From Candidatus Parcubacteria bacterium (GTDB taxonomy: Bacteria; Patescibacteriota; Minisyncoccia; Phycocordibacterales; UBA918): 64,000 nucleotides of DNA. Shown piece after piece: positions 7,297 to 44,360 of the stretch. Numbering within the stretch: the first letter of the stretch is position 1; each line of letters starts with the position of its first letter. The notes below the pieces were generated by a model. It did no database searches. It worked only from the letters and a program-made list of their open reading frames with translations, and was not told the DNA's origin. A program made the translations under genes and the position numbers. The stretch lies in the NCBI GenBank assembly GCA_021731405.1, contig JAKFXN010000005.1:105892-169891 (forward strand). The letters are read 5' to 3'.

Positions 7297-8052
7297 CTAA
7301 GCACCGAAGAACGATTTTGCCAGAATAATTGAGAAATCGACAAAGTTCATTTTTCCATCACTATTGAAATCATGGGTCAGGGTTTTACTATTCCAAGCAA
7401 CCATAAAAGCACTGATGTCTCTCAGGGTTACTTTACCGTCACCATCTATGTCTGCAGTAATATTGACTCCTAGGTTGGCAGAAATAGCGCTTGGGTCTTC
7501 ATCTTGGTCATATATGTAAAAACTTTGCTTTGAGGCGCTACCAGTACCAGAAACAGCAACCGGGGTTCCTCTTCCGTCACCAGCCAAGAGCTGGGCTTCG
7601 CGGACAAAAAATTCTGTGTTGCCACTCACTTTCGCTTGAGCTTTAATGGTGGCAATGAGATGTTCTCCCACAAAGCCTCGTCTAAATGTACCTCCGCCGA
7701 GAGTGATGGTTGATCCTTCAACAATGGGTTCTTGTGTCCAAACTGTTAGCACCGACTGTGCTTTGTCCACTGAAACAACCTCTACTTTATCTGGTGAAAA
7801 ATCAATCGTGATATCGATTGCGTTTACAGGAACATGTGCAGAGGCATAAATATCAATTGAAAAGCGCTCTCCTTCCATCACTGCAGTTTGGGACGGCTCT
7901 AATCGAATATAGGACTTGTCAGTAGAGACGACAGACGCACTCAGGACTGCAAATACACCTAGTACCAGTGGAAACATGTACTTCACTGTCAAACCATCCT
8001 GAACTGGTCTTTCAGGCCTAAATATCCTAAAAAGCGCTTTCAAATAGTTCAT
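7297..8052 (-). CDS. Small secreted protein with an N-terminal cohesin-like beta-sandwich and a C-terminal type-I dockerin (two DxDxDG Ca-binding loops).
   Basis: C-terminus DIDGDGKVTLRDISAFMVAWNS...DFNSDGKMNFVDFSIILAKSF matches the duplicated F-hand dockerin pattern. The N-terminal region is paralogous to the cohesin-like domains of 8762-10489, 10493-11569 and 42786-44360. Confidence 0.65.
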   Translation of the reverse strand: MNYLKALFRIFRPERPVQDGLTVKYMFPLVLGVFAVLSASVVSTDKSYIRLEPSQTAVMEGERFSIDIYASAHVPVNAIDITIDFSPDKVEVVSVDKAQSVLTVWTQEPIVEGSTITLGGGTFRRGFVGEHLIATIKAQAKVSGNTEFFVREAQLLAGDGRGTPVAVSGTGSASKQSFYIYDQDEDPSAISANLGVNITADIDGDGKVTLRDISAFMVAWNSKTLTHDFNSDGKMNFVDFSIILAKSFFGA

Positions 8053-8708
8053 GGCGTAACAAGAGCAGAGCGAAGTTGTGATGCTTCTGCGGTTGCTGCT
8101 GCGAGTTTTTGTTGAACTACTTGCACCTCAGTCTGAATTGTTGTAATTGTTTCACTTGATGCCGTTTCGCCGTTCATAAGGGCATTTATAATATTGCTTT
8201 GAAGCGCAACTAATGCATAAAATTGTGTACTAATTTCTTTTTCCTTAGCTACCAAACTTTTCCATGAGTCAAGTCGTGCATCTTCGTAGTTTTCTTTGCC
8301 AAGGAGACTTCTTTGTGAGACCCCTTCTTCAAGTAGTGTTACTTTTTGCTCGAGAAGCAAACTCATGACAGCCCTTCGTGTTGCGGGAATTGATCCACAT
8401 TGGTTGAAAAGCTCAGTTAAAGTACGGAGTTCTGCAGTAGTCAGTCCTTTATCTAGTGAGGCAAGGAGTTCGTCGTATTGAAGATTTTTATCACTTGGAC
8501 ATTCGTGGATGATTTCTTTTACATTTGCAAGGACACCGCCACGCCCGATCTCGCGAGCTACTTCCACAGCAGCTGCTTCAGTTTCAATTATCAAAGTATC
8601 GTACGCAGACCGAATATCATGGAGTCTTTTTTCAACCACCAAACTCGAACATATAAAGACTAAAAGAATTCCTACCGCAACTCCGTACACTGTTTGTTTG
8701 TTTTTCAT
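8049..8708 (-). CDS. Hypothetical membrane-anchored protein with an N-terminal TM and a helical ectodomain. Its stop overlaps the downstream gene start by 4 nt.
   Basis: 219-aa ORF with N-terminal hydrophobic segment GVAVGILLVFICSSLVV. The ATGA-type overlap with 7297-8052 suggests translational coupling. Confidence 0.55.
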   Translation of the reverse strand: MKNKQTVYGVAVGILLVFICSSLVVEKRLHDIRSAYDTLIIETEAAAVEVAREIGRGGVLANVKEIIHECPSDKNLQYDELLASLDKGLTTAELRTLTELFNQCGSIPATRRAVMSLLLEQKVTLLEEGVSQRSLLGKENYEDARLDSWKSLVAKEKEISTQFYALVALQSNIINALMNGETASSETITTIQTEVQVVQQKLAAATAEASQLRSALVTP

Positions 8709-8761
8709 ATGTGACTAACTGAATATTAACCGTTCTGACTATGTGTCTATAATAGCTCTTT

Positions 8762-10489
8762 TTATACCAACTGTTCAACGTCATCAACTTCCTTTTCAAC
8801 CCGTGTTTGCGCTCCTTTAAGAGCGCCGCTGAGTGAGACAAACATATCCTCTTCTGCTTTTGAGAGTTTTTTAGTCTTTTTTGCTTGAGTGAGACGCTCT
8901 TGTTCTTGACCCAAGACCTCATGTAGGTGAGCAAATTCACGCGCCAAAATAACAAGAGCTTCTTGTGATTCGGTAGAAACTCTACCTTTAAACCGGCGCA
9001 TGTATGCAACAAGGAACCACATAGATAAAACAAGTAGTACGAGCATTGCTAGAAGCGGAATTACCACTGACAGAATGTTTATGAGGAACGTTCCTATTTG
9101 GACATATCCAGGTTGCTGGACAGCAATTCGTATTGTCTCAGAAGTCTCTGATTGGGCACCAAACTCATCAATTGCTTTTGCCGTAAGTTCGTAGACACCT
9201 TGTGTGAAGGTGCCTTCAGGAATCAAAGTAAAGACTCCCGAGTCGTCAGCTGTGAGATTGTAGAGAGTCGGCTCAGCTCCAATCTTTTGGACACTCACTT
9301 CTACCTGCGCCCGTGGTCTTGTGAGTCCGCGCACTACTGGAATCACTTCTTCATTTATTTCATTTGGATATTCCGTGAATGTTGGCTTATCAAACGCTGA
9401 AAGTGTCAGTGAGAATGAACTTACGGTACTATTTCCAGCTCTATCGAAGGCCTCTACGATAACTGAATGTAGGCCTGGATCAAGTTCCTTCAGCTCAATT
9501 TTCTGCTCATTTTTTTCATCCAAAAATTCATAGGCTTCTTCATTATCAATTTTTATTGCATATCGGTTCACTCCAGAAGCACTGTCTTTCACTTGTACCA
9601 AAAGAGTCTGTTTTGGATTTGAAAGATCAGCTCCTTCTGGTAAGCTCAAGGCGAGTTCAGAGGGTGCTTCTGTATCTACCGCTAACCGATAGTGACTCAC
9701 TCTACCCCACCCGTCTTCATTTCGAAACTGAAGGTGAAAATATGACTCTCCTTCTGGTAAGTCGTTAAGTGTAATGGTAGAAATTGGTGTCTCGTACACG
9801 CGAGTCGGAACTGAACTTGGTGACTCATCAAGCAGCGTTCGTACTGAGGTTACTCCTGCAGGCAGCGTCCATGACAGTACAGCATTCTTTGTTTTATACC
9901 AACCTTCTCTATCGCTGTGTGTACTTGATTCAATTTGCGGAGCTCCTGGAGTATTTGCCGGAGCCACATATTCAACTACCTCGGGTGTTGGAGAGGTGGA
10001 AGGGGCTTGAATAGTGTACGTGCCACCGTTCATACTAGAGAGCACATTGGTACCCATTCCGTCATTTGCCAGCACTGCTCCTCCAGTCAAAGTAACTCTA
10101 GCAGTGCTGGCATTAGTAGTTCTGAAAGTAATATTAAAAACTGTTCCCGATGAACCGGTGTAGCCAGTTGGAAGCCCTCCACTGAAAGTTACCGTGCCAG
10201 CAGAATTTGAAAAACTAGGTTCTGTCACCCAAAGACTAAAAATGGAGTTAGATCTATCAACAGACACCACTGTGACTTCTTGTGGATTAAATTTTATGGT
10301 TCCTTCAGCAGCATTGATAGATTTTCCAGCAGAGTTTACTACTACTCTGGCAGTAAAGGTTGCCCCGGCAGAATACACACCAGTGGCCGGCGACATAGAC
10401 ATCGTGGCAGCAGACGATACTGCAGGCAGCAGCAAACTTAGAAGGGTGATTCCAAAAAATACGTAGGTGTTGCGGAGGGAAAGTGACAT
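8762..10489 (-). CDS. Anchoring-scaffoldin-like surface protein: signal peptide, cohesin-like domain, Ig-like/FN3-like domains, a C-terminal TM helix and a charged coiled-coil cytoplasmic tail.
   Basis: N-terminus MSLSLRNTYVFFGITLLSLLLPAVSSA then ATMSMSPATGVYSAGATFTARVVV...FSLWVTEPSFSNSAGTVTFSGGLP (cohesin-like). TM LINILSVVIPLLAMLVLLVLSMWFLVAY followed by the basic/acidic tail KKLSKAEED...VEKEVDDVEQLV. Confidence 0.65.
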   Translation of the reverse strand: MSLSLRNTYVFFGITLLSLLLPAVSSAATMSMSPATGVYSAGATFTARVVVNSAGKSINAAEGTIKFNPQEVTVVSVDRSNSIFSLWVTEPSFSNSAGTVTFSGGLPTGYTGSSGTVFNITFRTTNASTARVTLTGGAVLANDGMGTNVLSSMNGGTYTIQAPSTSPTPEVVEYVAPANTPGAPQIESSTHSDREGWYKTKNAVLSWTLPAGVTSVRTLLDESPSSVPTRVYETPISTITLNDLPEGESYFHLQFRNEDGWGRVSHYRLAVDTEAPSELALSLPEGADLSNPKQTLLVQVKDSASGVNRYAIKIDNEEAYEFLDEKNEQKIELKELDPGLHSVIVEAFDRAGNSTVSSFSLTLSAFDKPTFTEYPNEINEEVIPVVRGLTRPRAQVEVSVQKIGAEPTLYNLTADDSGVFTLIPEGTFTQGVYELTAKAIDEFGAQSETSETIRIAVQQPGYVQIGTFLINILSVVIPLLAMLVLLVLSMWFLVAYMRRFKGRVSTESQEALVILAREFAHLHEVLGQEQERLTQAKKTKKLSKAEEDMFVSLSGALKGAQTRVEKEVDDVEQLV

Positions 10490-10492
10490 AGG

Positions 10493-11527
10493 TTATACAA
10501 TATCTTCAGACATGTCTTCTTTCGTCTTTGTTGTAGCAGAGAGTTTTCTTCTTCGTCGCACAATGAAATACGTTCCCAAGAGAAGAAGGATGAAAAGCAC
10601 GCTGAGAGAACCGAGGGCAATGTATGAGTAGAGTTCGTTTCGCGATAGTGTCTGTTGTGATTCATCTGGAATATAGGTAGCAATATATTCATTACCAGCC
10701 TTATCAATAGCTTTTACGCGGATAACACTATTGAGACTTTGATCATTGAGTACATATGGGCTTTCACCTCGGAGCCAAGCGCTTCCGACACCTCCCCAAG
10801 TGAAGTTACTAAACTCTAAAACCGGCTCCTCCATTACCTCATAATGGCTGATACCTGTCTGTTTGTCAGTAGTACTAAAGACAATAAAATACTTTCCATT
10901 GAAGTAAACTCCTTCTGAGTCTTTCTCTAAAGTGATACTAAACTCCTCTGGTGCTACATCATCCGCTCGCACCGCTTCACGCCAATCATCAACGATTCCT
11001 GAACCAGCGTTTTTATCAAGCGTAAAAGTCCCTCCAAGTGCAGTCAAAGGTGCTCGAGTGCCTTGACCATCGTTTAGAAGAACTTGGGTCTCTGGAGCAA
11101 AATCAATCCTGGCGGTAGTATCGTCAGAACCTCCAATCTGCATACCAGGCGAACGGAATATAATTTCAGCAATAACATTAGTGAGGCGAGGATCCCCTTC
11201 AACTCGGCCGCAGTATCCATTTGGAATACCGCCAGCAAAAGTAATGGTCTTTTCCTCTTTGTTTATAACAGGTGGCTCTATCCAGACATTAAGAATCGAC
11301 TTTCCAATTGAAATATCTACTGGTTGGATATTATCTGTATACGTGAGTACTACATCAAGGGCGTTTATACATTCCCCAGCCTGACTGTCGGGCATAAGTC
11401 GTACCGCCGCTGTCAAAGCGTCGCCTCGATACAGCGTCCCAACGCCAGGATCAATATAGATGGTAGCTGCTTCCGAAACAGGAGCATACAACAAGAAAAG
11501 GAACGCAGCGAAACGCACAATGTGAAT
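10493..11527 (-). CDS. Cohesin-like surface protein with a C-terminal TM anchor and a short basic tail.
   Basis: Probable start at internal Met MIHIVRFAAFLFLLYAPVSEA (track start 11569). Cohesin-like ATIYIDPGVGTLYRGDALTAAVRL...ILNVWIEPP...ITFAGGIPNGYCG. C-terminal TM LGSLSVLFILLLLGTYFIV then RRRRK. Confidence 0.6.
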   Translation of the reverse strand: MHIVRFAAFLFLLYAPVSEAATIYIDPGVGTLYRGDALTAAVRLMPDSQAGECINALDVVLTYTDNIQPVDISIGKSILNVWIEPPVINKEEKTITFAGGIPNGYCGRVEGDPRLTNVIAEIIFRSPGMQIGGSDDTTARIDFAPETQVLLNDGQGTRAPLTALGGTFTLDKNAGSGIVDDWREAVRADDVAPEEFSITLEKDSEGVYFNGKYFIVFSTTDKQTGISHYEVMEEPVLEFSNFTWGGVGSAWLRGESPYVLNDQSLNSVIRVKAIDKAGNEYIATYIPDESQQTLSRNELYSYIALGSLSVLFILLLLGTYFIVRRRRKLSATTKTKEDMSEDIV

Positions 11528-11582
11528 CATGTTGTAAGTATAGCAAAACAAGCATTCTCTAATCTTCACTGTACACAGACAA

Positions 11583-11650: not shown

Positions 11651-12799
11651 CTAGAATACTGGCGTTGCTACGTATGTCAGCGTAGCTGTGTAATCGCTGC
11701 CCGCTTCTTGTAGCGGACCTACTTCAACGGTATATCCTACACGTGTGATACCGACTCCTTGCGTTGTCGAATCAGCTGGTCCATCGTGTCGGAAGATTTC
11801 TACTGGTGTAGTAGAAGCAGATACATACATTCGTCCGCCGCCCCCTACATCAAAGTAGTTATCGAGGTCAGGATAAATGGTATCGTCGTTTGTTGTGATT
11901 CCCCAGTGTCCATAGGTATCTTCGTCACCTAGGGCAGATGTTGGACTCTCATAAAACAACGGTGTGTCTGTATATGCTCCATTACTATAACCATCGATAT
12001 CAGCACCTGTGGCTGATGTGAGTTGTTGGTCAGCATGTACTGTAACGACAAAGCCGTTAGCTGCGTTGGTACTTACTTCTAAGTCCTGCGCAGCGGTGAC
12101 TGCTGTATCAGCTTCTAGAACTCCAAAAGGAATTTCAGTAGAAGTTGTTGTACCGCTCGTTGTGTCTCCGTTGATTGCAGCTCCCGCATTTACACCTGTA
12201 ACAGTGAAATCGAAAATTGTTTCAACAGAGGCAGTAACTGTAACAACGTCAACAATTGCTACTCGCGTCGCACCAGTATCACTACTTCCAACAGTAAGCG
12301 TAATTTCGTACGAGTTTACAGCAGGGTTAGTGATTTGGTTTGAACCAGCTCCACCAGTAGTGGCGTTGGTACCAATTTCAATGGTGACAGTAGCATTTGC
12401 TCCGATAGTACTTGTGCCACTTTCAATGTCAATGACATCTCCAGCGGCAGTAACGTTCCAGTCCGCCCCACTGGCAACACCGTCGATAAGACTTTGCTCA
12501 ACGCCGTTGACGTTTAGGTCAACATCGGCAGCAACGATGGTTCCAACATCTGTAAAGACGCCAGTACCGAAGTTGATTGAGATTGTCTCACCAGCAGCGA
12601 GGCCAGTTGGTGTAACGAAGGATAGTGTGTGGTTGGATACTACCCCAGGTGCAGAATCTGAGAGTGTGTTACTAAATGAGATGACATTTGCAGCTTCCGC
12701 TCGGAATAAAGGTACACCTACGAACCATAAAATGATTGCGAGGGTAACAACTGCGGTGATTGCTTGGAGCAACGTGAACGTTGTATTCGTTCTAATCAT
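11651..12799 (-). CDS. Secreted Thr/Gly-rich beta-sandwich surface protein with a possible distant WxL-like C-terminus. Paralog of 53041-54132.
   Basis: Signal anchor then AEA|ANVISFSNTLSDSAPGVVSNHTLSF. The C-terminal region contains YGHWGITTND and ends TLTYVATPVF, alongside WGHWGLTSDD...TLMYIATPTF in the paralog. Confidence 0.55.
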   Translation of the reverse strand: MIRTNTTFTLLQAITAVVTLAIILWFVGVPLFRAEAANVISFSNTLSDSAPGVVSNHTLSFVTPTGLAAGETISINFGTGVFTDVGTIVAADVDLNVNGVEQSLIDGVASGADWNVTAAGDVIDIESGTSTIGANATVTIEIGTNATTGGAGSNQITNPAVNSYEITLTVGSSDTGATRVAIVDVVTVTASVETIFDFTVTGVNAGAAINGDTTSGTTTSTEIPFGVLEADTAVTAAQDLEVSTNAANGFVVTVHADQQLTSATGADIDGYSNGAYTDTPLFYESPTSALGDEDTYGHWGITTNDDTIYPDLDNYFDVGGGGRMYVSASTTPVEIFRHDGPADSTTQGVGITRVGYTVEVGPLQEAGSDYTATLTYVATPVF

Positions 12800-13366: not shown

Positions 13367-14497
13367 TTATCCGCTCCAATTAAACAGCAAAATAGAAAAG
13401 TCCTCAATACTCACCCTCCCGTTACCATTTATATCCGCAGGAGGATTAGAGTTTCCTCCGTCTGTCTGCCACCAGAAAATCAAAATAGAAAAGTCGATTA
13501 GGTTTACTCGTCCGTCACGATTGAGATCTGAAGGAGTAGTTACCTGTCCATCAACGCCAACAAAAAGTTGTAGGGTGGAACTAAAACTACTTTGTGTAGT
13601 CAATTGTCCGGTCCCCGTAACCGAACGAGCCCGAAGGGTATGCGGAGCAACTGAGAGTGAGGCGGTGTTTAAAGTAAGACTCCAATTTCCCTCCGCGTTT
13701 GCCGTGGTGCGTTCTATAGTTGAGCCTGTATCTATATGTACTTCTATTCCTGCGCTAGGAATAGATTGTCCACTTACAGTCACTATGTCTCCCGGGTTTA
13801 CGTTTTGGTTTGGAACACGAATAGTCGGCGGCAAAATAACACCAGCAATATTTGTAACCGCACCCTGCGTCACATCAAAGGTAGTGTTGAGAGTAATTGA
13901 GCGAGTCCCTGCAACGTCTGTGGCCCAAAAGCCAAGTGAGGCGGTGCCTGGTGAAGCGTCGGTAGTAAAATCAAATCTTCCTGCCCCATTGGCGCGTACA
14001 CTACCGACTGTTTCTGAGTCAAGAATTATATTGATAGTACGGCCAGGGTAGGCGAGGCCCGTGACACTTATGATAGTATCTCCCAGTTCAGTGGTACTTC
14101 CTCCGCTACCACCACTTCCTCCTCCCGAGCTTCCTCCTCCTCCCGAACCAGCTGGTTCAACCTGACAAATTGCTGAACAAAAGTCTCCATTGTCATTATT
14201 ACCATCATCACATTCTTCAGAGAATTGTGTCTGTAAAATTCCGTCCCCGCAATACGGACCAAAATTACAAATAGTGCTGCACTGTCGTCCAACTATAGTT
14301 GTACTATACACACCAGTCTCACCTGGAGCATCACACTGCTCACCATCGTCTACAAGTGCATTACCGCAGATACTTAAACTAAGGGTGGTTGATGCTGTAC
14401 CTGCAAAAAAAGTTTGTGCGAAAGCGACCTCCCCTTGGAGTAGTAGGAGTACAAGGCAAGAAAGTAAATAGAAAGTAAATCTCATAAGTCTATCCAA
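13367..14497 (-). CDS. Secreted dockerin-bearing protein: N-terminal Cys-rich repeats of the Myxococcus-type CGDG...CDDGN...C pattern, a Gly-rich linker, two Ig-like domains and a C-terminal type-I dockerin.
   Basis: YCGDGILQTQFSEECDDGNNDNGDFCSAIC repeat. C-terminus DLNRDGRVNLIDFSILIFWW...DINGNGRVSIEDFSILLFNWSG (two dockerin segments). The C-terminal half is paralogous to that of 45148-47058. It overlaps the upstream gene by 8 nt. Confidence 0.7.
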   Translation of the reverse strand: MDRLMRFTFYLLSCLVLLLLQGEVAFAQTFFAGTASTTLSLSICGNALVDDGEQCDAPGETGVYSTTIVGRQCSTICNFGPYCGDGILQTQFSEECDDGNNDNGDFCSAICQVEPAGSGGGGSSGGGSGGSGGSTTELGDTIISVTGLAYPGRTINIILDSETVGSVRANGAGRFDFTTDASPGTASLGFWATDVAGTRSITLNTTFDVTQGAVTNIAGVILPPTIRVPNQNVNPGDIVTVSGQSIPSAGIEVHIDTGSTIERTTANAEGNWSLTLNTASLSVAPHTLRARSVTGTGQLTTQSSFSSTLQLFVGVDGQVTTPSDLNRDGRVNLIDFSILIFWWQTDGGNSNPPADINGNGRVSIEDFSILLFNWSG

Positions 14498-15455
14498 CCT
14501 GTCGGCGAGAAAGACGTCTGTTGTAAATGAAATACAGAACGAGGATCAAAAGTGCAAAGATTGGCAGCAAGATTGAGATCTTATGCGGGACCGAGAGTCC
14601 ACTAAAGCCAAAGCCTGCTTGTTGTAGTGTGCCGTACGGAAGAATACTGAGACTAACTTCCCCTTCTTGCTTAACTTCATCGCCATTATAAATACTGTAC
14701 CGCGCAATATAGTTTCCGGCTGGAAGACGAGTTGGAATCTCAGCCAGTACTTCTTCAGTTGCGTAAGGAGCAATCTCAGTTATACGTCCCTTATGATCTG
14801 TTTCTTCAAGGAGAACATTTCCAGCGAAGTCAAAGATTCTAAATGCAACACGTGAAGGTGAAATATCTACGTTACCAGTGTTTTCGATTAACATAGTGAA
14901 ATTAATCTTTCCAGGGAAATACAACCAACCAAGTTTCTTTCCTTCATTCAAATCAGAAAGTCCAATTTTACGTACTCGAAAATCTTTTATTTCTCTATCA
15001 ATAACAGTGAGACCTATATCAACCTGCGCACCAAGTGAAATACTCACCGCACCAGCAGCTACTTGATCATCATCAGGTACAGTCTTGATTCTAATGACAC
15101 CTTTATAGTCTTTGAATTCAGCGTCATCAGGAACCGTTACTCGGACAGTCATTGGTACTTTCTGTACGCCTCGTGGCAATGGCACAGACTCTCCTTCTAC
15201 AATCTGGATCCAGTCCATGATTTCGGGAGCGTCCACGCTAATTTGGGCCTTCTGGGGCACATCAGGATTACCGCGCACCAACAAAATCTGTTGTTCGTAA
15301 GTGGAGTTTCGAGTCAGGCTCGTATTGCGTACATATGGTGGCGTAATACCAAAACCCGCTCGCACTATCTCAGTTGAGAGCACAAAAAAAAGCAGGCAGA
15401 TGGAAATAACCTTCTTCATATAAACAATATCGAGTACATCTCTTGCACTCTCCAA
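14490..15455 (-). CDS. DUF916-like cell-surface protein with an N-terminal signal, Ig-like ectodomain and a C-terminal TM plus basic tail (ends ...LVLYFIYNRRLSRRQVG).
   Basis: N-terminal GFGITPPYVRN...ILLVRGNPDVPQKAQISVD resembles the start of DUF916 proteins from lactobacillus/enterococcus WxL loci, recalled from memory. The C-terminus has LPYGTL then a hydrophobic stretch and an RR tail. Paralog of 51829-52974. Confidence 0.5.
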   Translation of the reverse strand: MESARDVLDIVYMKKVISICLLFFVLSTEIVRAGFGITPPYVRNTSLTRNSTYEQQILLVRGNPDVPQKAQISVDAPEIMDWIQIVEGESVPLPRGVQKVPMTVRVTVPDDAEFKDYKGVIRIKTVPDDDQVAAGAVSISLGAQVDIGLTVIDREIKDFRVRKIGLSDLNEGKKLGWLYFPGKINFTMLIENTGNVDISPSRVAFRIFDFAGNVLLEETDHKGRITEIAPYATEEVLAEIPTRLPAGNYIARYSIYNGDEVKQEGEVSLSILPYGTLQQAGFGFSGLSVPHKISILLPIFALLILVLYFIYNRRLSRRQVG

Positions 15456-15542: not shown

Positions 15543-17405
15543 CTACCAGTCTGTACTACTTGAGGTCACGGCGTAGAAGGTGTTTAGCCCTGTGTAGGCA
15601 CCAGCTACAGTAATCGCGATCGGTACTTCAATTCCCCAGTACGTTACACCTGAGTTAGGTGATGAGGTGGCTGTGGTCTTTGGTACTTTGAGCTCGAGGA
15701 GCTGTTGTGTTGTAGAAGAAAGATTGTATCCACTTCCGTACGCAACAGAACTTGTTCCGAACTCTTGTTGGTAATCTGGAATAGTTGAAGAAGCACTGTT
15801 TGCACATGGACTTCCCACCGCAAATCCTGGACACATCGCCTCACCTTCAAGTTCTTGGTTGAGCCCGGTGTTACCTACCGAGAGAACAGTTGTCGTTGCG
15901 TCGAGCGTTCCGGTGTTGTCTCCTGGTTCGAGTGATCCATATGGAATTTCTCCTGTAATCAAGTCAATGGCTGGGAAACTAAGGAGAGTCACTGGACTTG
16001 AGCCAACTGTTCTTGTTCCAGTAGCGTTGTTGTCATCGATACCAGCAATTGCTGCTACCCAATCATCGGCAGCAAATGGAGAGATAACGTCTGTTGGTTC
16101 AGCAACGAACCAGAGTGGGAATGTGCAAGACCAAAGTTGAGTTGGGTCTGATGGTCCACCACAACTAGTGGTAGATGCTGTACATGAGAGGTTCCAGACG
16201 TTGCTTGGGGCTCCACTTGGATAACAGTTGTTTGGATTGTATGAGCCGGCAAGACCAGAACAAGTTGATGTTCCAATACTACTTCGGTAAAGAGAGACTA
16301 CATATCCGACCATCTCGTCACCTCCAAGAGCATTTTCGCAACTGTTGGCATCGGAAGTTTCAAAGGCGAGTGGGAAGTTTAGAGTTTCTCCCGCTTCTAC
16401 CGTGAGTGAGATGTTTAATCCTCCGTTGACTGAGATACTTCCCGCAGCCACTGTTGGCGCTACGTTGCTTACCACAAAGCCATCATTTTCACCTTGAGAT
16501 CCACCTACTGCTGTGTGTCCATGGTTGTCTACAATGAAGCCGTAAGCATCAAAAGTATCATCTTGGATAACGCTTGGAAGAGTGAATGCCGCTGTAGCGT
16601 TTGCAGTTACTGGAACAGTAGTGGTAGCGATAGTTCCGCCGATACCACAACTTGCTGTTGTTGTACTGTAGTCGTTTGCATTACAGACATGCAGTGTAAG
16701 CACGTCTTCTCCACCAACAACGTCAGGGTCAGTTGAAGTTGAGAAGAAGGTTACAACGGCTCCAGGGTTAGCTGGTGAGTTGTTGTAGAAAGATGTAAAG
16801 CTTGGTCTGAAGTTTACATGGAAAGGAGAAGAGTTAGTTGCATTAGTACCTTGAGAACTTACGTCATTACAACGTGGGTTCACAGGATCGTCGTCACATA
16901 CCCAACCATACCAGTTGTTGCTTTCAGCAAACGGTGCGACTTCTGATGTTGTGGTTGCGACCCGGGCTTGCGCAAGAGCAGCTGTGGCGGTAGAGACTCC
17001 CCACTGCACTCCACCCACACACTCTGGCGGCTCAGTACCGAGCGTACCGAGACTGGCTGCAGCGTTTGGCGTCGGTGTAGCACTGCCACTACAGATAATC
17101 AAGAAATACGGCGCATTTCCAGAGTTGTCAGCCCGAGCTGTCCACGAGACTTGTCTTCCTGAGTTAGTCGGTGTGCTGGTTGAAGATTCAAACTCTTCTA
17201 CAGCAAAATCAATCCAAATCGGAGGAGTGTTGAGTACGGTCAGTGTCGTAGTTGCGGTCTGTGCTTCTACTTTTAGGAGCTCTGTTTTTCCTGCGTTAAA
17301 GAGGAACACGAAGGCAAAAATGAGCACTCCAGAAACAGCAGCCGCAATGGTGATTTTGCCTGCAGTTTCTAGGTAATTAAATTTCTCTACTTTGTTGTAC
17401 AACAT
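15543..17405 (-). CDS. Secreted 620-aa protein with an N-terminal signal anchor. It is a paralog of the C-terminal ~500 aa of the giant protein, including the shared YWGI(E/A)VP C-terminal domain.
   Basis: C-terminus SGVTYWGIEVPIAITVAGAYTGLNTFYAVTSSSTDW against the giant protein's TDVYWGIAVPFTASNAAHTGTNIFTAIGID. The upstream 100 aa also align (IPYGSLEPGDNTGTLDATTTVLSVGNTGLNQELEG against INYGALSGDSDTGSFNPTTTITNLGNTPINVDVEG). Confidence 0.65.
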   Translation of the reverse strand: MLYNKVEKFNYLETAGKITIAAAVSGVLIFAFVFLFNAGKTELLKVEAQTATTTLTVLNTPPIWIDFAVEEFESSTSTPTNSGRQVSWTARADNSGNAPYFLIICSGSATPTPNAAASLGTLGTEPPECVGGVQWGVSTATAALAQARVATTTSEVAPFAESNNWYGWVCDDDPVNPRCNDVSSQGTNATNSSPFHVNFRPSFTSFYNNSPANPGAVVTFFSTSTDPDVVGGEDVLTLHVCNANDYSTTTASCGIGGTIATTTVPVTANATAAFTLPSVIQDDTFDAYGFIVDNHGHTAVGGSQGENDGFVVSNVAPTVAAGSISVNGGLNISLTVEAGETLNFPLAFETSDANSCENALGGDEMVGYVVSLYRSSIGTSTCSGLAGSYNPNNCYPSGAPSNVWNLSCTASTTSCGGPSDPTQLWSCTFPLWFVAEPTDVISPFAADDWVAAIAGIDDNNATGTRTVGSSPVTLLSFPAIDLITGEIPYGSLEPGDNTGTLDATTTVLSVGNTGLNQELEGEAMCPGFAVGSPCANSASSTIPDYQQEFGTSSVAYGSGYNLSSTTQQLLELKVPKTTATSSPNSGVTYWGIEVPIAITVAGAYTGLNTFYAVTSSSTDW

Positions 17406-17510: not shown

Positions 17511-18719
17511 TTATTCATATCTAATCGCATCAAGTGGATTGAGGGTTGAAGCACGTCTGGCTGGGAAAACTCCTGTTAAGTACCCCACTCCAGCTGAGAA
17601 AAGAGCAATGAAGACCAAAAATACAATTGGGAAAGAGAAAAGTGAGACAGATTGTCCACCAAATTGACCCGCCACGATATTCAAAAATAGATTGACAGTA
17701 AGACCTAAGGCAACGCCCATCACAATTCCACTCACCCCACCCATAAAGCCCACCACAATAGACTCAGAAATAAAGAGGTTTTTTACGTCTTTTGGTGAAG
17801 CGCCAATTGTACGCATAATTCCAATTTCTTTTGTTCGTTCAAGGAGTGTAACTGTCATGGTATTAAACATACCAATAGCAGATACAATAAGTGCAATTCC
17901 GCCAAAGGTAGCCAGTACCGCTTGTACGCCTTGGAAAATCTTTGACGCCTGCTCCACAGTCTTTGAAAGTGCGGTTACTCGATAGCCAGCTTCAATAAGG
18001 CGAGCTTCAACAATCGGTAGATTTTCGTTTGAGTTCACACGAACTTGAATACGCTCATATTCTTCAATACCCACGTGATTGCGAAGCTCTGGAAGCATCA
18101 TCATGGCATTAAGAACACCTTCTTCTTTTGTAATACCACGTACGGTGTACTCTTTATCAATTGGAACCTCAACCACTGCGTCAGTCCCATCCTCAGCTGG
18201 TACAAGCAGTCTGAAAGATACTTTTTCGCCAACAAAAGACTCCGCTTCATCAATTCCGAAAAGCTTCAAAACAGCAGGGGAAAGCATTATGCTGTTTGTA
18301 TCACCAGCATCTTCATCAGTAAAAACAGTTCCTTCGGTTGCTGTTACTCCTGCATACCGTAGGTATGGAGGCTCAACACCTTGAATAAAGACGTTTCCGG
18401 TTAAACCTTTATAGGTAACGAGCGCAGGAAAGCGAGCCAATGGTGCAGCATCAAGAACCTCTTCATACTTTTTAAAAGTATCAACTGTTTCAACTGTGAG
18501 TTTGAGGTTTTGTGCACCTGTGGCAGAAACACCAAGTGAGAGAAGTGTCTCTCCAAACACAATCTGCTCAAGAATGATTTTTTGTAGACCAAAGCCGAGT
18601 CCAACCAGCACCACCACCGCTCCAGTTCCCACACCCATACCTAAAATCGTAAGCCACGTACGAAGTGGGTTAGTTTTAAACATTCGAGTTGAGAGTTGGG
18701 CTAGATCTTGAATTCGCAT
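17511..18719 (-). CDS. ABC transporter permease, FtsX/MacB-like, with an N-terminal TM, a large extracytoplasmic domain and a C-terminal 3-TM FtsX domain.
   Basis: 402 aa. N-terminal TM LRTWLTILGMGVGTGAVVVLVGLG, ~230-aa ectodomain, then C-terminal FtsX-like helices (ATFGGIALIVSAIGMFNTMTVTLLERTKEIGIMRTIGAS...). Immediately downstream of the ABC ATPase. Confidence 0.8.
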   Translation of the reverse strand: MRIQDLAQLSTRMFKTNPLRTWLTILGMGVGTGAVVVLVGLGFGLQKIILEQIVFGETLLSLGVSATGAQNLKLTVETVDTFKKYEEVLDAAPLARFPALVTYKGLTGNVFIQGVEPPYLRYAGVTATEGTVFTDEDAGDTNSIMLSPAVLKLFGIDEAESFVGEKVSFRLLVPAEDGTDAVVEVPIDKEYTVRGITKEEGVLNAMMMLPELRNHVGIEEYERIQVRVNSNENLPIVEARLIEAGYRVTALSKTVEQASKIFQGVQAVLATFGGIALIVSAIGMFNTMTVTLLERTKEIGIMRTIGASPKDVKNLFISESIVVGFMGGVSGIVMGVALGLTVNLFLNIVAGQFGGQSVSLFSFPIVFLVFIALFSAGVGYLTGVFPARRASTLNPLDAIRYE

Positions 18720-18797
18720 TAAATGAAATAATGAGCGTAGCGATTATATTGAATTTAGTTCCTAATTTTCTCCATTACTAGAGAAAATTACTGGAAC
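18719..18797. ncRNA. Conserved structured intergenic element, copy A (hairpin-motif family), lying between the ABC ATPase stop and the FtsX start codon.
   Basis: TTAAATGAAATAATGAGCGTAGCGATTATATTGAATTTAGTTCC-TAATTTTCTC-cattacta-GAGAAAATTA-CTGGAAC. The outer stem GTTCC/GGAAC and the 10-bp inner stem are shared with copy B, and the inner stem shows compensatory changes between copies. Confidence 0.5.
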
Positions 18798-18865
18798 GAC
18801 CCAACGCCCCTATTAAATGTAATTGTAACACTTCAAACTCTCAAAGAAACAAGTTTCCCCCGTAA

Positions 18866-20188
18866 CTAACTCTTGTAACTCACATCCACTCCTTGGGCGA
18901 TGATTTTTTCGAAGTAACGTGTAAGATCATCCGCTTCTTTTGGATCTAGTGCGAGTCCACCACCTTTTATACCAAGCATGAGACGTTCATTAAACTGCGC
19001 TTCCTCCACTACGCCAGTCACACGGTCGGCAATCATTTCAACCATGTTGTCATTTTGTTCTTTACTCAATTTCATATGGTAAGAACCCATTAGGTGGTCA
19101 CGTAACCGCTCAGCTAGTTTATGTTGGCTAAAAAAGATATCGTCGTTATCTTTTTTTGCTCTAAAACGCCTAATATCATCTGCTTGATGCATAAGTTTTT
19201 CGGCCACGTGTGCCATCCGCTTGGCTTCTTTTTCTTCAATCTCTACTCCACCTTGCTCAAGCTTGAGTACAAGCGCACGGATAAATGTGTCTTTGTCTAT
19301 TTTGCCTTTGATAAATAGGGCAATAGCATGCTCTAGGCGAATAATTTGGTCATAGGTGTACTCTTGGGTCAGGAAGTTAACCATACTCTTCACGCGAAGC
19401 GTATCAACTGAGTCGTAGGGATACAGACGAGCAAGTTGTTCAAGCTCAGTCACAATAGTCTCACCTTCGCGGACTGGTTTAATTTGTTTTCGCTGTGGGT
19501 TTACCACTTCTCGCACCACAAAGCCGTCTTTGAGATAATACACGCGGTGCGCATAGCTCAAGTGCGCAGCGTTATGAGACACCATAATAATGGTTCGTCT
19601 ATCAAACGTGTTAATTTCGTCAATCTTGTCCATTACCTGCTGCGTAGAAACCGAGTCGAGGTTTCCGGTTGGTTCATCTGCCAAGAGAATTTTTGGGTCG
19701 TTCACCATCGAACGAGCCACCGACACACGCTGCTGCTGTCCTCCAGAAAGCATGGCTGGGATTTTGTGAGATACATGCCCTACCCCAAAGCGATCAAGCA
19801 GTGACTGCGCACGACGTTCGCGTGTCACTCTATCAGCATCACAAAAAATCATTGGGAGCGCGACGTTGTCGAGTACTGAAAGGGAGCCAATCAGGTTGAA
19901 AGACTGAAAAATAATACCCATCACGTACCGTTGAAAATAAACACGTTCACTCGGTGGATATGAATAGATATCGTCTCCACGAATAAGGAGAGTGCCGTCT
20001 CCTGGGGGAAGCGAGCCCTGAATTGAATACATCAAAGTAGACTTTCCTGAACCTGAAGCACCGAAAAGAATGATGTACTCCCCTTCATAGATATCAGTAT
20101 TTACACCCTGAAGGGCTCTAAATTCATTAGATTTGCCTTTGTTGTAGATGATTGAAAGATCACGACAAACAATGAGTGGTTTCGCCAT
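18866..20188 (-). CDS. ABC transporter ATP-binding protein (MacB/LolD/FtsE-like NBD) with an unusual ~200-aa charged helical C-terminal extension.
   Basis: Walker [11 protein letters not shown]-loop, ABC signature LSGGQQQRV, Walker [14 protein letters not shown]-loop VSHN. The C-terminal part beyond the NBD is charged and helical (...[11 protein letters not shown]...[30 protein letters not shown]...) and has no match I recognise. Confidence 0.85.
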
Positions 20189-21768: not shown

Positions 21769-24700
21769 CTAATCAATACCGATAGCAGTAAAGATGTTGG
21801 TACCCGTGTGTGCGGCGTTACTAGCTGTAAACGGAACCGCGATACCCCAATACACATCAGTCTCTACTGGAGGAGTCACAACACTTGGCTTGCTGAGGTT
21901 AAGTCCAAGTACAACGGCACTACTTGATGAGAGCTGCTGGCAAGTAACACAGGCGTTGTAGGTGAAAGTTGAGGTAGCAACTTTCTGTTGATCAGCTGGA
22001 ATAGCTGAAGATTCACCGTCAGTTAGATCAGTTCCTTCAACATCAACGTTGATTGGTGTGTTGCCGAGGTTTGTGATGGTGGTAGTTGGGTTAAACGAAC
22101 CAGTGTCAGAGTCTCCTGAGAGAGCGCCGTAATTTATGACAGAATCCACTGCCATCGCTCTTAGAGTAATGAGTTCTACTCCAATAGCGGAGGCAAAATC
22201 ATAGCCTTCACTAGAATCTTCTGCCTCAGCGTAAGCTTCCCAAGTTTGTCCTAAATATGGCTCCTCGTCTGTTGCATCCGCATGGAAGAAGATATCAACT
22301 TCACAAGACAGATCACAACTGTTTCCAACACAGTTAGTGAGCGTACATTGACCATTTTCAGTTGTAGCTACGTAACAGTTGTTGTTATCTGGTGTACAAG
22401 TAGGACCAGCCCCACTGCGGTAAATAGTAGCTGTCGCATGAATGATGTCAGAAGCACCATTGAAGTCAGTGACAATACCCGAAACAGTAACTGGCGTAGT
22501 TGTACCTGGAGTAAGATTTATATCTCCTCCACCATTAAGTGTAACTGCACCAAAGGTTGGGTCAAATTGAAGTCCTAGTTCAGCAATTTTAGCGTAAAAG
22601 TCCAGTGGAGTTCCATCGTTTGTGACTCTGAAGCAGTAGTCATCTGAAGCATTACTTGTTGGGGTCAGTACATACTCGAGTTCAGTGTAGAAGTCTTGAT
22701 CTAAGTCAGTCGCAGCTGTTTGACTCGAAGGACTCTCAACAATTGAACCCTCACTAAATGTTCCTTCTGTACCAGTGAGTAAATCAGTAGCAGGGTCGCC
22801 ATTTGTGACAAAAGTAGAGGCTTGCATACAAACAGGAGAACTGCCACAAGATGCTTGGTTTGGCACAGTAGCATATGAAGCACTGTTGACAGACTCACAA
22901 GTAGGGGCTGCTCCCTTAGCAGCAAACTCAAGTCGGTACTGTTGAGCAGTCACATCGAGACCTGAGTTTTCAACCGCCAACCTTAGACGAACAATGTCAC
23001 CTGGGATAGCTGTTGTAATTCCATCTAAACTAGAGGCCCAACTTGCACCACCATCGGTCTGCTTTGCACCAAGGAAAACAGTTGGAGTAGTAGCTATTCG
23101 GGCCCGTGAGGTAAAGCTGTCCCAAGCTCCGTTCTGGAACCAGAAGGCATATCCAAATCCGCCAGAAGTGTAGTTGGCGTCAGTGGCAGAAGTAGTCGCA
23201 ATGAGGGTGCCGGCACTATTAAAGAGTGATACTTCCATTAAGTCACTTGTCTGCCAGTCAATTTCTACTTCATACCAACCAGTTGTGTATGTGACTGTAG
23301 TGGTGGCAAGTACAACTCCCGAAGTATCATTATTGTCTACATCTCGAGCGAGAGAAATTCTATCTACCCCGAACTGCTCAAGACAAACGCCGTAATTTTG
23401 GTTTGTTGTTCCTGGCGACTGCACTCCAAAAAGTGTACAAGGTTCATCTCCACTACCACCCGAAGTGTTTACATATTGCATGTAGCGAATTATTTCACCT
23501 TGAGTCACCGGATCATCAAAGCGGAAAATACCGTCCGTCGTCTTTCCGCTTGGATTTGAAGGTGCAAGCGACCGCGCTCCGCCATAGACTGGAGTTGTAA
23601 CAGTGGTAAAGAGACTGGTGTCTCCTGAATACTCAGAGATAGAAGCGTCTTCATAATCATCAAATGCATTCATGGTACTTGTTCCACTACTTTGTGACAC
23701 AGCTGTAGAGCTTCCATAATACATAAACACCGTTGCATAATCGCTTGCTGGCAATGTTGGGACTCGCACCCAAATCTGTGCGTCGGTACTGGCAGTGTAC
23801 CTTTCTATCCAGAACGGAATTTGTGTTTGCCCGTTATCGCTCGTGAAGCGAATATCTTCAAAGTCTGATTGCATTGAACTATCGTACGGAACAATCACCT
23901 TAACGGCGGTTGAAGCATATGCTTGGTTGTCGTTATTAAGTACTCGCACTCGTGTCCGATAATCAAAGCTGCTATTAAACCACTCTGTAGATGGTGCACC
24001 TTCTCCACCATCATCATTTCGCCAGCGAACGTGTGTTTGTTCGGTGAGGAGACAAGAGCTGTTATCAAATCGGATTGAGCCACAAGCATCAATGCCATCA
24101 ATGTCGAATCCTTCTCCGCCAATATTTCCATAGTTGTTGGTAAAGCGCCACGCGTTTGCAGTCTCGCCAGTGAGATTTATGTTATAGCCCGTAAGTGGCC
24201 CTGTGGCATTAAAACCTACGGCGTCAAATGTTTTTGAAGGATTGGCGTTGAGGGTGGTTGAAGAAAGTGTGACCGCAGAACCAGAAGCCACGGCGATATC
24301 GAAGTATCCGTTCGATAGTTCATCAATAGTAGACAGACCACTTAACTGAAGACCAAACACATTCATATCACCAAACTCATAATAATTGGCATTGAGAGTT
24401 CCTCCGGTCACGGCAAAGTTATATGTTCCACTACCTTGATTTTGCATGATAGTTGAACTTCCAGATGTTCCTACAATCTGAAGCGAGCCAGTAGTGACCG
24501 TCGTAGTTGCATTTGGCGCAAACGAGACCGTTACTTTTCGTTGATTACTGCCACTGAGTACCGTTCCGTCAAAGTCGTTACTGTAATTCCAGTACTCAGT
24601 AGTGGTGGCGATTTGTAGATCTCCGTACACATATAGCGCCCCGTTAGTGTTTGCGTGGTCTTGTGAGTACAACGAACCAGAAAGCGCAACGGTTGTAGTA

Positions 24701-42672: not shown

Positions 42673-42720
42673 TACATAACAACCGCCGTGTCCTTGGGAG
42701 ACACAAAGAGGTTCTTTTAA

Positions 42721-42755
42721 TTATACCGCGTACCCACTCAAGGGTACGCGGTATA
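42721..42755. promoter_or_regulatory. Perfect 15-bp inverted repeat (hairpin) in the 113-nt spacer between the scaffoldin-like gene end and the giant gene start.
   Basis: TTATACCGCGTACCC-ACTCAA-GGGTACGCGGTATAA. No strong U-run, so it may be a terminator, an attenuator or a protein-binding palindrome. Confidence 0.5.
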
Positions 42756-42785
42756 ACGTCTGTATGTGGGGATTGAAGTAGTATT

Positions 42786-44360
42786 TTACTTCAGAATTGC
42801 CTTTACATCATTGATTTCCTTTTCAATCAAGGTCTCTGAAACTTCGAGTGCTTGATTGAGTCCTTCCACTGCTTCTCGCTCACTTTTTGACAATCGCTTT
42901 CGTTTAGTAATCATGTTTACTTGGTCATAGATTTCATCTCGCAGTGCTGAGAAAATTTTCTCCATTTGATCTTGAACCTCACGTGTTTCTCGACGCAACT
43001 TCTCTTCTTTTATCTTAAGTTGTTTTCTTTCATACCAGATAAATATTGCCATCAAAAGGATAATAACAAAGAGGAAGAAGATGAGTAGGTTGCCGGGAGT
43101 CAAGAACGACCAGAAAGATTCTTCTTCAAGCACCTCAGCTGGTTTTATCCAGCCAGCCGTGATGAGTACCGCCTTGTTACTCTCTCGAATATTTCCAGCC
43201 TTGTCATGTGCAACTACTTTTACCGTGTAGGTGCCATCTTCAAGTTCACCAAGCAAATATCCGAGCAGTGCTTCATCTGGAGTTACTCTAAATGGCTCCT
43301 TGTCTGCAATCGTAAGCTCATAGAAGTCTATGCCTGAAATTTTATCTATCGCTTCAAATACAAGGAGTGGGAATGACGACGGTGTACTGCCAGTTCGTAC
43401 GCCAATTTCAAATGGTTCTGGAGGAATGGTATCAATCTGAAGTTTTCGATTGAGCGTTACTCCCCAACCAACTTGGTTCTTAAATCTAATACTAAGATAC
43501 TGTACTCCATCGACAATGATGTCTTTTGTGATTCTGAATTCATCTACTGGCGGTTCGAGTACTGAATCGGGATTGAGACTCGGATCGTTTTCACTTGAAG
43601 TTGCCATTTCTATTGCAACTGCATTTACGTCAAATGGTAGTGTCCAAGTAAATAGTCCTTCAGTAGTGTTGTACCACACTTCAGGGTCAAGGAAGGCTGG
43701 TGAGCCAACTTCTGGAGCACGTGGCGGATCTCCGAAAATAAGCGCTTCTTCACTATCATCTTCTTCATCGGGCTCTGGCGTATTTGGGGTAGGTGTTGGT
43801 GTCGGAGTTGGGGTAGGTGTTGGTGTCGGAGTCACAGCAGCTCCAATGGTAAAGTTGCTTGGGGAGGAAGTCTGATATACGTCGGTGCCGCGACCGTCTG
43901 CCGCTAGTACTGAAGCAGCACTAAAGCTAACAGCGGCTGTTCCTGCTTTTAATGTTCGAAACGTTACATTGATAAGGTTCGAGGTTGCAGAAAATGGGGC
44001 TGGGCTACCACCTCCGAAGCTTACGGTACCGGCTGTATTAGAAAAGGTTGGCTCTACAGTCCAAAGTGAGAAGGCGGAACCATCTTTTGTGATACTCACA
44101 ACTGAGAGAAGTGTTGGGTCAAACTTGAGAGTAGCCTCAACTGCATTAATGTTTTGACCGGCAGGTAGCACGCGTACCGCAGCGGTAAATGTCTGCCCTC
44201 CAGTATAAGAGCCCGTGCTTGGGTTCAATTGCAAAGTGGCAGCACTCGCAGTAAGTGCGCTCAAGAAAAATAGTACACTTACCGCAAGCAGACACAGAAG
44301 CTTTACAGCCACTTGTTCAACTTTATTATGTAAATGAATGTGTAACATACGTGATTTCAA
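42786..44360 (-). CDS. Anchoring-scaffoldin-like protein: signal, cohesin-like domain, (TP)n linker, Ig-like domains, a C-terminal TM and a coiled-coil cytoplasmic tail. Paralog of 8762-10489.
   Basis: ATLQLNPSTGSYTGGQTFTAAVRVLPAGQNINAVEATLKFDPTLLSVVSITKDGSAFSLWTVEPTFSNTAGTVSFGGGSP then TPTPTPTPTPTPTPNTPEP. TM LIFFLFVIILLMAIFIWY. Tail ...KRKRLSKSEREAVEGLNQALEVSETLIEKEINDVKAILK is conserved with the tail of 8762-10489. Confidence 0.65.
   Translation of the reverse strand: MKSRMLHIHLHNKVEQVAVKLLCLLAVSVLFFLSALTASAATLQLNPSTGSYTGGQTFTAAVRVLPAGQNINAVEATLKFDPTLLSVVSITKDGSAFSLWTVEPTFSNTAGTVSFGGGSPAPFSATSNLINVTFRTLKAGTAAVSFSAASVLAADGRGTDVYQTSSPSNFTIGAAVTPTPTPTPTPTPTPTPNTPEPDEEDDSEEALIFGDPPRAPEVGSPAFLDPEVWYNTTEGLFTWTLPFDVNAVAIEMATSSENDPSLNPDSVLEPPVDEFRITKDIIVDGVQYLSIRFKNQVGWGVTLNRKLQIDTIPPEPFEIGVRTGSTPSSFPLLVFEAIDKISGIDFYELTIADKEPFRVTPDEALLGYLLGELEDGTYTVKVVAHDKAGNIRESNKAVLITAGWIKPAEVLEEESFWSFLTPGNLLIFFLFVIILLMAIFIWYERKQLKIKEEKLRRETREVQDQMEKIFSALRDEIYDQVNMITKRKRLSKSEREAVEGLNQALEVSETLIEKEINDVKAILK

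Follow-up and report, generated by a model that had tools for sequence, protein, structure and literature searches.

A conserved, predicted cytoplasmic helical hairpin at the C-terminus of membrane-anchored surface proteins of Patescibacteria

The window analysed here is a stretch of 64,000 nucleotides from Candidatus Parcubacteria bacterium (assembly GCA_021731405.1, contig JAKFXN010000005.1, positions 105,892 to 169,891 of the forward strand). Two of its genes, hereafter A (575 aa, 8762..10489, minus strand) and B (520 aa, 42786..44348, minus strand), encode surface proteins that share a charged C-terminal tail of about 80 residues following a transmembrane (TM) helix. This tail is a real and conserved domain, for which we found no Pfam or NCBIfam family, no PDB relative and no paper describing it. 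Judging from sequence rules and structural models, it is cytoplasmic, and it is confidently modelled as an antiparallel two-helix hairpin whose first helix runs on from the TM helix. The new element is thus the cytoplasmic hairpin domain, whereas the proteins bearing it are of a known kind, namely membrane-anchored cohesin/immunoglobulin (Ig) surface proteins. As for its role, we give about even chances to the proposal that the tail is a self-associating cytoplasmic anchoring and docking hairpin of Patescibacteria.

Both proteins begin with a signal peptide ending in an AxA-like site, followed by a cohesin domain (Pfam PF00963, gathering cutoff 24.1 bits, exceeded by both). In A, the cohesin (residues 28-162, 10004..10408, minus strand; E = 2.1e-7, 31.7 bits) precedes three Ig-like beta-sandwich domains, the last of which matches Big_13, then the TM segment (residues 467-496, 9002..9091, minus strand) and the tail (residues 497-575, 8765..9001, minus strand). 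In B, whose start is probably the ATG at 44348 rather than the listed TTG at 44360, which sits too far upstream, the cohesin (residues 37-170, 43839..44240, minus strand; E = 3e-8, 34.4 bits) is followed by a TP-rich linker, Ig-like domains, the TM helix (residues 421-438, 43035..43088, minus strand) and the tail (residues 439-520, 42789..43034, minus strand). The tails are 79-82 aa long, contain K+R and D+E in roughly equal numbers, and are devoid of Cys and Pro. The initial annotation of this DNA had pointed to two large proteins with charged tails of about 80 residues past a TM helix and to a motif, K(K/R)LSK..., shared by them. Both open reading frames (ORFs) do lie on the minus strand with such tails, the segments then singled out (8762-8990 and 42786-43010) correspond to the last ~75 codons, and the motif is present in A as KKLSKAEEDMFVSLSGALKGAQTRVEKEVDDV and in B as KRLSKSEREAVEGLNQALEVSETLIEKEINDV. 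The term "scaffoldin-like" was overstated, as each protein carries one cohesin and no glycoside hydrolase or other carbohydrate-active enzyme family was found among the scanned neighbours of A and B.

The similarity between the two tails exceeds chance, and profile comparisons that avoid circularity uphold it. A hidden Markov model (HMM) built from A-type tails of other genomes matched the B tail over nearly its full length (E = 7.4e-9), the runner-up among the 645 ORFs of the window having an E-value of 2.3. The reverse search, with an HMM of B-type tails, recovered A with E = 4.6e-5, and hhalign aligned both tail profiles over 69 columns (96.5% probability, E = 8.3e-10). According to the tail HMM, A and B are the only tail carriers among the ORFs of the window. 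The two proteins are 33% identical over the ectodomain and 24% identical over Big_13, TM helix and tail; they are paralogs along their whole length, so the shared tail was inherited and did not arise by independent convergence. All A-type orthologs retain RKTKKL(T/S)KxEE ... VEKE(V/I)xDV, and in a tail-only alignment of both types E12, E15, F24, E51, K71, E72 and D75 are invariant.

Tail-bearing proteins are numerous. We detected 976 homologs of A, the best 120 of which are nearly all 566-601 aa long (three outliers), and 919 homologs of B, of 485-538 aa; named homologs of both come from Kaiserbacteria, Nomurabacteria, Paceibacterota and Parcubacteria. Against 1.84 billion representative proteins (HMMER), the tail profile retrieved 414 clusters (50% identity) at E<=1e-3 and 68 at E<=1e-10. 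The match finishes a few residues from the C-terminus in nearly all of the matches listed, and one hydrophobic segment precedes the tail in every full-length protein inspected. The B tail by itself occurs in at least 107 species-representative genomes, with 78-99% identity among the best 80 listed. The titles of these genomes include Kaiserbacteria, Nomurabacteria, Paceibacteria, Parcubacteria and Elulimicrobium (a Patescibacteria lineage), together with many automatic "Saccharibacteria" labels, and all informative titles designate Patescibacteria; a single contig labelled Legionellaceae is probably mis-binned. The earlier claim that the tail is conserved in orthologs is thereby confirmed.

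Three size classes can be distinguished among tail-bearing proteins: ~575-600 aa (A type), ~480-530 aa (B type) and ~330-365 aa (short type). Short-type proteins have a signal peptide and a B-like tail, begin at a "GGPxAP" segment and lack a cohesin. Moreover, among 75 tail-bearing representatives of at least 300 aa, Big_13 was found in 55 and Cohesin in only 23, indicating that the tail belongs to the Ig-like/TM module and that the cohesin is an optional N-terminal addition. The tail had first been presented as a feature of cohesin systems; from these counts and the cohesin-free class of ~340 aa, it is not specific to such systems.

Searches for relatives of the tail outside these proteins were negative. 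With the tails alone, Pfam returned just sub-threshold coiled-coil noise, and no NCBIfam family covers the tail. Comparison of the tail profile with PDB sequences yielded nothing significant (best match a Rab-family protein, E = 0.031), and a Foldseek search of the tail model against PDB retrieved generic hairpins only, none of them significant (best E 1.4). Almost all whole-tail Foldseek matches are two-helix hairpins, such as EsxA/B, the DHp domain of ERS1, Snf7 and designed hairpins. In the literature searched on cohesins and dockerins in Patescibacteria, the candidate phyla radiation (CPR) and Parcubacteria, and in preprints on the Pam pilus and on giant genes, we met no description of this protein family. 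One Pfam family, DUF4381 (PF14316, cutoff 27.2 bits), was considered as an identity for the tail. It matches B with 27.8 bits over the full protein and 31.6 bits over TM helix plus tail, and two B orthologs have precomputed matches, but the match vanishes once the TM helix is removed. It spans profile positions 13-93 of 145 and misses helix 2 and the signature motif; A has no match. The DUF4381 match of B thus probably reflects a generic TM helix followed by a charged helix.

AlphaFold2 models the full-length A protein with a predicted local distance difference test (pLDDT) score of 89.4, as four beta-sandwich domains followed by a continuous helix (residues 461-536) that includes the TM segment, a loop (537-543) and a second helix (544-574), the tail having a pLDDT of 80-89. 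When the A tail is modelled alone, helices are predicted at positions 2-41 and 49-79 (pLDDT 90.3, predicted template modelling score 0.68). A Foldseek search with the full A model returned generic tandem Ig/fibronectin type III (FnIII) strings and was uninformative on the tail. In both tail helices hydrophobic residues are spaced 3-4 apart, with a periodicity peak at 3.6 residues, as in amphipathic helices. The tail had initially been described as a coiled coil; the heptad-like amphipathic pattern supports this description, which the model refines to an antiparallel hairpin. Where helix 2 begins, KKL(T/S/N)KxE would form an N-capping box (S/T/N-x-x-E) after a basic loop, as suggested by the homolog alignment and the models. 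In A, this loop and capping box (AKKTKKLSKAE) occupy residues 537-546 (8852..8881, minus strand), where L542 and E546 hardly vary and S, T or N serves as the cap. Residues E507, E510, K566, E567 and D570 of A converge, in the antiparallel model, at the membrane-proximal end of the hairpin, beside the juxtamembrane RRFR, and this invariant charged patch is common to all tail types.

The location of the tail inside the cell, as initially assumed, agrees with the order of the parts (N-terminal signal peptide, beta-sandwich ectodomain, single TM helix) and with the positive-inside rule. The 15 residues following the TM helix contain 5.1-6.8 K+R, vs 1.5-1.8 before it, in the three sets of proteins considered (120 A-type, 120 B-type and 76 representative proteins).

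The tail is under purifying selection at the protein level, which in the B lineage is very strong and exceeds that on the ectodomain. Mean pairwise identity in the B type is 88% for the tail, the best-conserved part of the protein, vs 70-74% for ectodomain domains and 58% for the TM helix. In the A type, it is 41% for the tail, 43-61% for ectodomain segments and 21% for the signal peptide, so that the A tail is conserved about like the least conserved ectodomain segment. Among 80 B sequences (the window and 79 species loci), identity in the tail amounts to 0.85, 0.90 and 0.44 at codon positions 1, 2 and 3, respectively, and third positions within identical residues are 46% identical. Synonymous sites are thus close to saturation and selection acts on the protein, so that neither a nucleic-acid element nor an overlapping gene can account for this conservation. 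Polar columns of the B type are 87% identical in the tail vs 67% in the ectodomain; those of the A tail are 36% identical, vs 55% for its hydrophobic columns. The initial annotation had argued that a conserved tail implies an intracellular partner. The near-invariant surface of the B tail speaks for this argument, whereas the A-type pattern fits a purely structural, self-associating hairpin equally well. An intracellular function of the tail is plausible, the more so for the B lineage.

How might such a tail work? Two-helix hairpins usually pair into bundles, as in WXG100 proteins, DHp domains and designed hairpins, and isolated ones are rarely stable alone. Hairpins of at least two anchor molecules are thus expected to pack together. 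According to the proposal that we favour, hairpins from several anchors would pack into a helical bundle just beneath the membrane, which would fix the oligomeric state and the spacing of the ectodomains. The bundle would also act as a cytoplasmic "foot", retaining the single-pass anchor when surface structures pull on it; such structures would be dockerin-bearing proteins and possibly neighbouring pilus-like proteins and giant adhesins. The charged cluster of A (E507, E510, K566, E567 and D570) may lock the register of the hairpin or make a docking site. In the B lineage, the near-invariance of solvent-facing tail residues calls for at least one extra cytoplasmic ligand, which might be HSP20, the sole candidate encoded nearby.

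The B locus bears on this last point. It comprises, in order, an ABC exporter, a 687-aa dockerin protein, HSP20, B and a giant protein of 6967 aa, an order that recurs in every long contig examined. The HSP20 (alpha-crystallin) gene (44374..44838, minus strand; Pfam PF00011, E = 8e-11, 42.3 bits, cutoff 20.8) is immediately upstream of B and co-oriented with it. Its product, which has neither a signal peptide nor a hydrophobic N-terminus, is the only cytoplasmic protein of the B cassette. Among 80 species loci, three of which are on contigs that end earlier, HSP20 lies directly upstream of B on the same strand in 77 of the 77 testable ones; the first ATG of B follows the HSP20 stop closely (median 18 nt, at most 38 nt in 75 of the 77 loci). 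The giant gene (21769..42672, minus strand), whose products range from 3000 to 7500 aa across loci, is found downstream of B in 71 of the 80 loci. This cassette of HSP20, B and giant gene is strictly conserved, and it is unusual for a small heat-shock protein to be so tied to a giant exported protein.

Such data lend some weight to an alternative in which the hairpin mainly binds a specific cytoplasmic protein (HSP20, or a cytoskeletal or division protein), as an adaptor-docking or signalling tail. We regard this alternative as possible but rather unlikely. Surface attachment would then, with the same reservation, be coupled to the cell interior, or a chaperone would be brought to the export site of the giant neighbour. 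Gene pairs that are strictly conserved often code for proteins that interact, and besides the HSP20-B adjacency with its short gaps and the absence of a signal peptide from HSP20, the alternative is favoured by the entire B-tail surface being near-invariant in ~80 species despite saturated synonymous sites, and by the charged patch present in all tail types. However, HSP20 is missing from the neighbourhood of the short-type homologs, whose tail is B-like, the surface of the A-type tail is variable, and the scanned neighbours of A and B yielded no family of regulators, kinases or sigma factors. More specifically, the B tail might recruit HSP20 to the membrane, thereby coupling the holding or export of the ~7000-residue adhesin, or a stress signal, to the surface anchor; we consider this specific version doubtful.

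The self-associating anchoring and docking hairpin remains our preferred explanation, and several points weigh against it. Its topology is derived from sequence rules and a model rather than from experiment, and the cytoplasmic foot is inferred. In the A type, conservation concerns the hydrophobic core and a few charged residues, and the low identity of the polar columns of the tail means that no partner need be invoked for this type. Nor does the A operon offer an obvious cytoplasmic partner, the one candidate being an ABC ATPase with a helical extension. As for the B lineage, the short-type homologs weaken HSP20 as a general partner, and the HSP20-B adjacency may mirror co-regulation with, or chaperoning of, the 7000-aa neighbour.

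Three further explanations appear far less credible. According to the first, the downstream gene is regulated by the 3' terminus of the tail-bearing gene or by its nascent C-terminal peptide; the regulator would be an element in RNA or DNA, an overlapping gene, or an arrest peptide of the SecM/MifM kind that senses membrane insertion. The position of the tail, which consists of the last ~80 codons and emerges as ~80 residues beyond the TM helix, would suit this explanation, as would a strong conserved hairpin located after the B stop and ahead of the giant gene. This nucleic-acid hairpin (42720..42757, minus strand, between the B stop at 42786 and the giant start at 42672) is an observation in its own right: it has a 16-bp stem, GTTATACCGCGTACCC/GGGTACGCGGTATAAT, with a minimum free energy (MFE) of -28.8, and recurs at 71 of 79 species loci (80-nt MFE <= -15). 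The interior of its stem covaries on both arms while the outer TATA(C/A)C...G(G/T)TATA(A/C)T is kept; its 3' arm ends in a -10-like TATAAT/TATACT box, an upstream AATCCACA motif is likewise conserved, and there is no T-run behind the hairpin. It might serve as a terminator or processing site, or as a palindromic operator overlapping the promoter of the giant gene. Scans with promoter and terminator consensus sequences around A and B gave nothing above shuffled expectation. Against a regulatory role of the tail itself stand the near-saturated third codon positions, next to first and second positions that are 85-90% identical, and the conservation of the tail in A-type and short-type genes, whose downstream genes differ. 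The heptad pattern, the capping box and the confident AlphaFold2 hairpin all point to a folded domain. No long ORF overlaps the tails except a 133-aa ORF in another frame (8632..9033), an equivalent of which is not among called genes in other genomes. We thus hold a regulatory element to be very improbable.

The second explanation, equally improbable in our opinion, is that the C-terminal region serves as a sorting signal for an enzyme of the sortase, exosortase or archaeosortase kind, the tail being cleaved off and functionless. It draws on a Q-x-P-G-[YFIL] motif (residues 460-466 of A, 9092..9112, minus strand) that immediately precedes the TM helix in 117 of 120 A-type homologs, and on the basic cluster RRFR after this helix. 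The motif does look like one used for sorting, yet the length and conservation of the tail speak against cleavage: known sorting signals stop a few basic residues past the TM helix, whereas here at least 75 conserved and structured residues follow. Furthermore, no LPxTG was found in the last 150 aa of 240 homologs, and B and short types keep the tail without the PG[YF] motif (B-type proteins have an FWxF-like motif before the TM helix in 76 of 120 cases). Being the best-conserved part of the B protein, the tail is hardly a discarded peptide. A tripartite C-terminal sorting signal of the LPXTG, PEP-CTERM or PGF-CTERM kind was rejected, a structured domain of 79-91 residues following the TM helix in all but one of the 240 homologs.

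Finally, an extracytoplasmic tail forming a surface stalk, through a double crossing of the ~37-aa A-type stretch or an inverted orientation, would profit from the long uncharged span of the A type (mean 36.9 aa, with a conserved Pro in mid-span), but hardly deserves belief given the single continuous helix predicted by AlphaFold2, the strong enrichment of K/R behind the TM helix in each of the three protein sets, and the homologous B-type span, whose mean length of 26 aa behind a cleavable signal peptide implies a single membrane crossing.

In the B locus, the 687-aa protein upstream of HSP20 (45148..47211, minus strand; Dockerin_1, 28 bits, cutoff 22.9) keeps its position in the other B loci examined and is likely the ligand of the B cohesin. 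The giant 6967-aa protein starts with a signal-anchor, contains an acidic low-complexity region and matches just two Pfam families (Ig_Rha78A_N and DUF2341). No dockerin motif was found in it, so it is probably not a direct ligand of this cohesin. Its C-terminus (…VYWGIAVPFTASNAAHTGTNIFTAIGID) resembles that of the 620-aa protein of the A operon (15543..17405; …VTYWGIEVPIAITVAGAYTGLNTFYAVTS). Further upstream, beyond the dockerin protein and the ABC exporter of this locus, are three tandem paralogs of 267-272 aa with an FGE-sulfatase (formylglycine-generating-enzyme-like) domain (48919..51410, minus strand), an arrangement repeated at locus L008. The short-type genes (~340 aa; loci L005, L006, L090 and L091) are always directly after dinB (IMS) and before a gene for an AI-2E-family transporter, with neither HSP20 nor a giant gene nearby. 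In the window, dinB (54452..55717) is ~10 kb upstream of B. The surface island thus looks like an insertion or expansion at this place, unless the short-type lineage was reduced.

The A operon comprises, in order, a MacB-type ABC ATPase with an FtsX-like permease, proteins of 620 and 321 aa, a 376-aa dockerin protein, proteins of 382 and 358 aa, A, proteins of 219 and 251 aa and a 525-aa acidic protein. It is conserved gene for gene in a Kaiserbacteria genome from the permease onward, the fetched flank ending in the permease gene. The MacB/LolCDE-type transporter (17511..20188, minus strand) heads the operon. Its ATPase (440 aa, 18866..20188) has a helical C-terminal extension of ~200 residues (~230-440) with no family match and, being cytoplasmic, could in principle meet the A tail. 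Two dockerin-bearing proteins are encoded here: the 376-aa protein (13367..14497, minus strand; Dockerin_1, 33.7 bits), whose position is conserved at loci L001-L003, and the 251-aa protein (7297..8052, minus strand; 24.4 bits), with a C-terminal dockerin and, by eye, an N-terminal cohesin-like domain. The 358-aa protein immediately upstream of A (10493..11569, minus strand) is cohesin-like and TM-anchored, but ends in a 21-aa tail with no hairpin domain and no tail-HMM match. Directly downstream of A, the 219-aa protein (8049..8708, minus strand) has an N-terminal TM helix, an all-helical region, two Cys and no family match, and is probably extracytoplasmic; a 217-aa gene matching it in size and position follows A at loci L001-L003. 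The 321-aa protein (14490..15455) has a signal peptide, a C-terminal TM helix and no family match; this protein and a WxLIP_PGBD protein (51829..52974) could be membrane-anchored chaperone-like partners of Pam-like pilins (see below).

Cellulosomes offer the closest parallel for the cohesins. Single-cohesin anchors are known there, namely SdbA, OlpA and OlpC of Acetivibrio/Clostridium thermocellus and ScaE of Ruminococcus flavefaciens, which keep dockerin-bearing proteins on the cell surface. Like them, A and B would be secreted via a signal peptide and carry one cohesin, and dockerin proteins are encoded beside both. A cohesin-dockerin system is thus predicted from sequence, Dockerin_1 being above cutoff in each of the three proteins mentioned (7297..8052, 13367..14497 and 45148..47211), and the neighbouring dockerin proteins carry Ig-like and cysteine-rich repeats. 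In cellulosome anchors, attachment to the wall relies on SLH domains or on sortase (LPXTG), and no cytoplasmic part is known. In contrast, A and B, in an ultra-small CPR bacterium, would be anchored by a TM helix and a conserved 80-aa cytoplasmic hairpin, and Pfam revealed no SLH domain in either of them.

The tail itself is predicted to resemble the DHp domain of histidine kinases and WXG100 proteins (EsxA-EsxB) in being an antiparallel hairpin of two ~30-40-residue helices. The DHp hairpin likewise extends a helix that spans the membrane or transmits signals, and it pairs with another to give a four-helix bundle. Unlike it, the tail has no conserved His (0.12 on average per B tail) and no catalytic domain, the protein ending after helix 2; unlike WXG100 proteins, it has no WXG motif. 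RsgI anti-sigma factors of clostridia that produce cellulosomes, and eukaryotic type I adhesion receptors such as integrins and cadherins, are also bitopic, with an outer ligand-binding domain and a conserved cytoplasmic part that binds an intracellular factor. Here the analogy is functional only, and the tail shares neither sequence nor fold with the tails of integrins or cadherins. In RsgI it is the N-terminus that lies inside, the reverse of the arrangement here, and there is a cognate sigma-factor gene, whereas no gene of a sigma-factor family was found among the scanned A and B neighbours.

The Pam pilus of CPR bacteria is another relevant system. As its 2026 preprint describes, it has TM-anchored chaperones and a TM-anchored terminator, PamR, and the anchors (PamR, PamC/D) are CPR-specific and Sec-exported, consist of tandem beta-sandwich domains with a C-terminal TM helix, and are proposed to tether filaments, while the pilins occur predominantly in Saccharimonadia and Microgenomatia (bioRxiv 10.64898/2026.03.03.709456). 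A and B share this general build, and proteins resembling Pam pilins are encoded next to A and near B: the 382-aa protein (11651..12799, minus strand) and a 363-aa protein (53041..54132, minus strand) match NF058581 CPR_Pam_pilin_C with 24 and 27 bits, below its cutoff of 55. Judging by these matches, Pam-like donor-strand pili may also exist in the lineage of the window, where homologs are named Kaiserbacteria and Paceibacteria. The main text of the preprint differs in mentioning neither cohesin, nor dockerin, nor a conserved cytoplasmic tail (bioRxiv 10.64898/2026.03.03.709456). A PamR-like anchor would be expected to lie in an operon with Pam pilins and TM-anchored PapD-like chaperones, to have an RbmA-like tandem FnIII fold with an N-terminal donor strand, and to be homologous to PamR (WP_260763282.1) of Ca. 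Mycosynbacter amalyticus; the A ectodomain resembles tandem FnIII/Ig strings generally.

Patescibacteria/CPR represent a large share of bacterial diversity, and little is known of the assembly and control of their surface apparatus; the cultivated ones live attached to other cells. The signature (K/R)(K/R)L(T/S)xxE ... KE(I/V)xD(I/V) can be used to annotate tail proteins, and experimenters gain an 80-residue testable peptide as well as a strictly conserved three-gene cassette (HSP20, anchor and giant). For the cohesin-dockerin field, TM helix plus cytoplasmic hairpin would constitute a third anchoring mode, beside SLH domains and sortase. If true, the link between HSP20 and the tail would connect a chaperone to an adhesin in a way not known from cohesin-dockerin or pilus systems. 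More generally, attention mostly goes to the exposed regions of surface proteins, and an inner domain that outranks the exposed part in conservation, as in the B lineage, points to an important event on the inner side of the membrane, and the shared hairpin suggests a link between the adhesive surface machinery of these bacteria and their cell interior.

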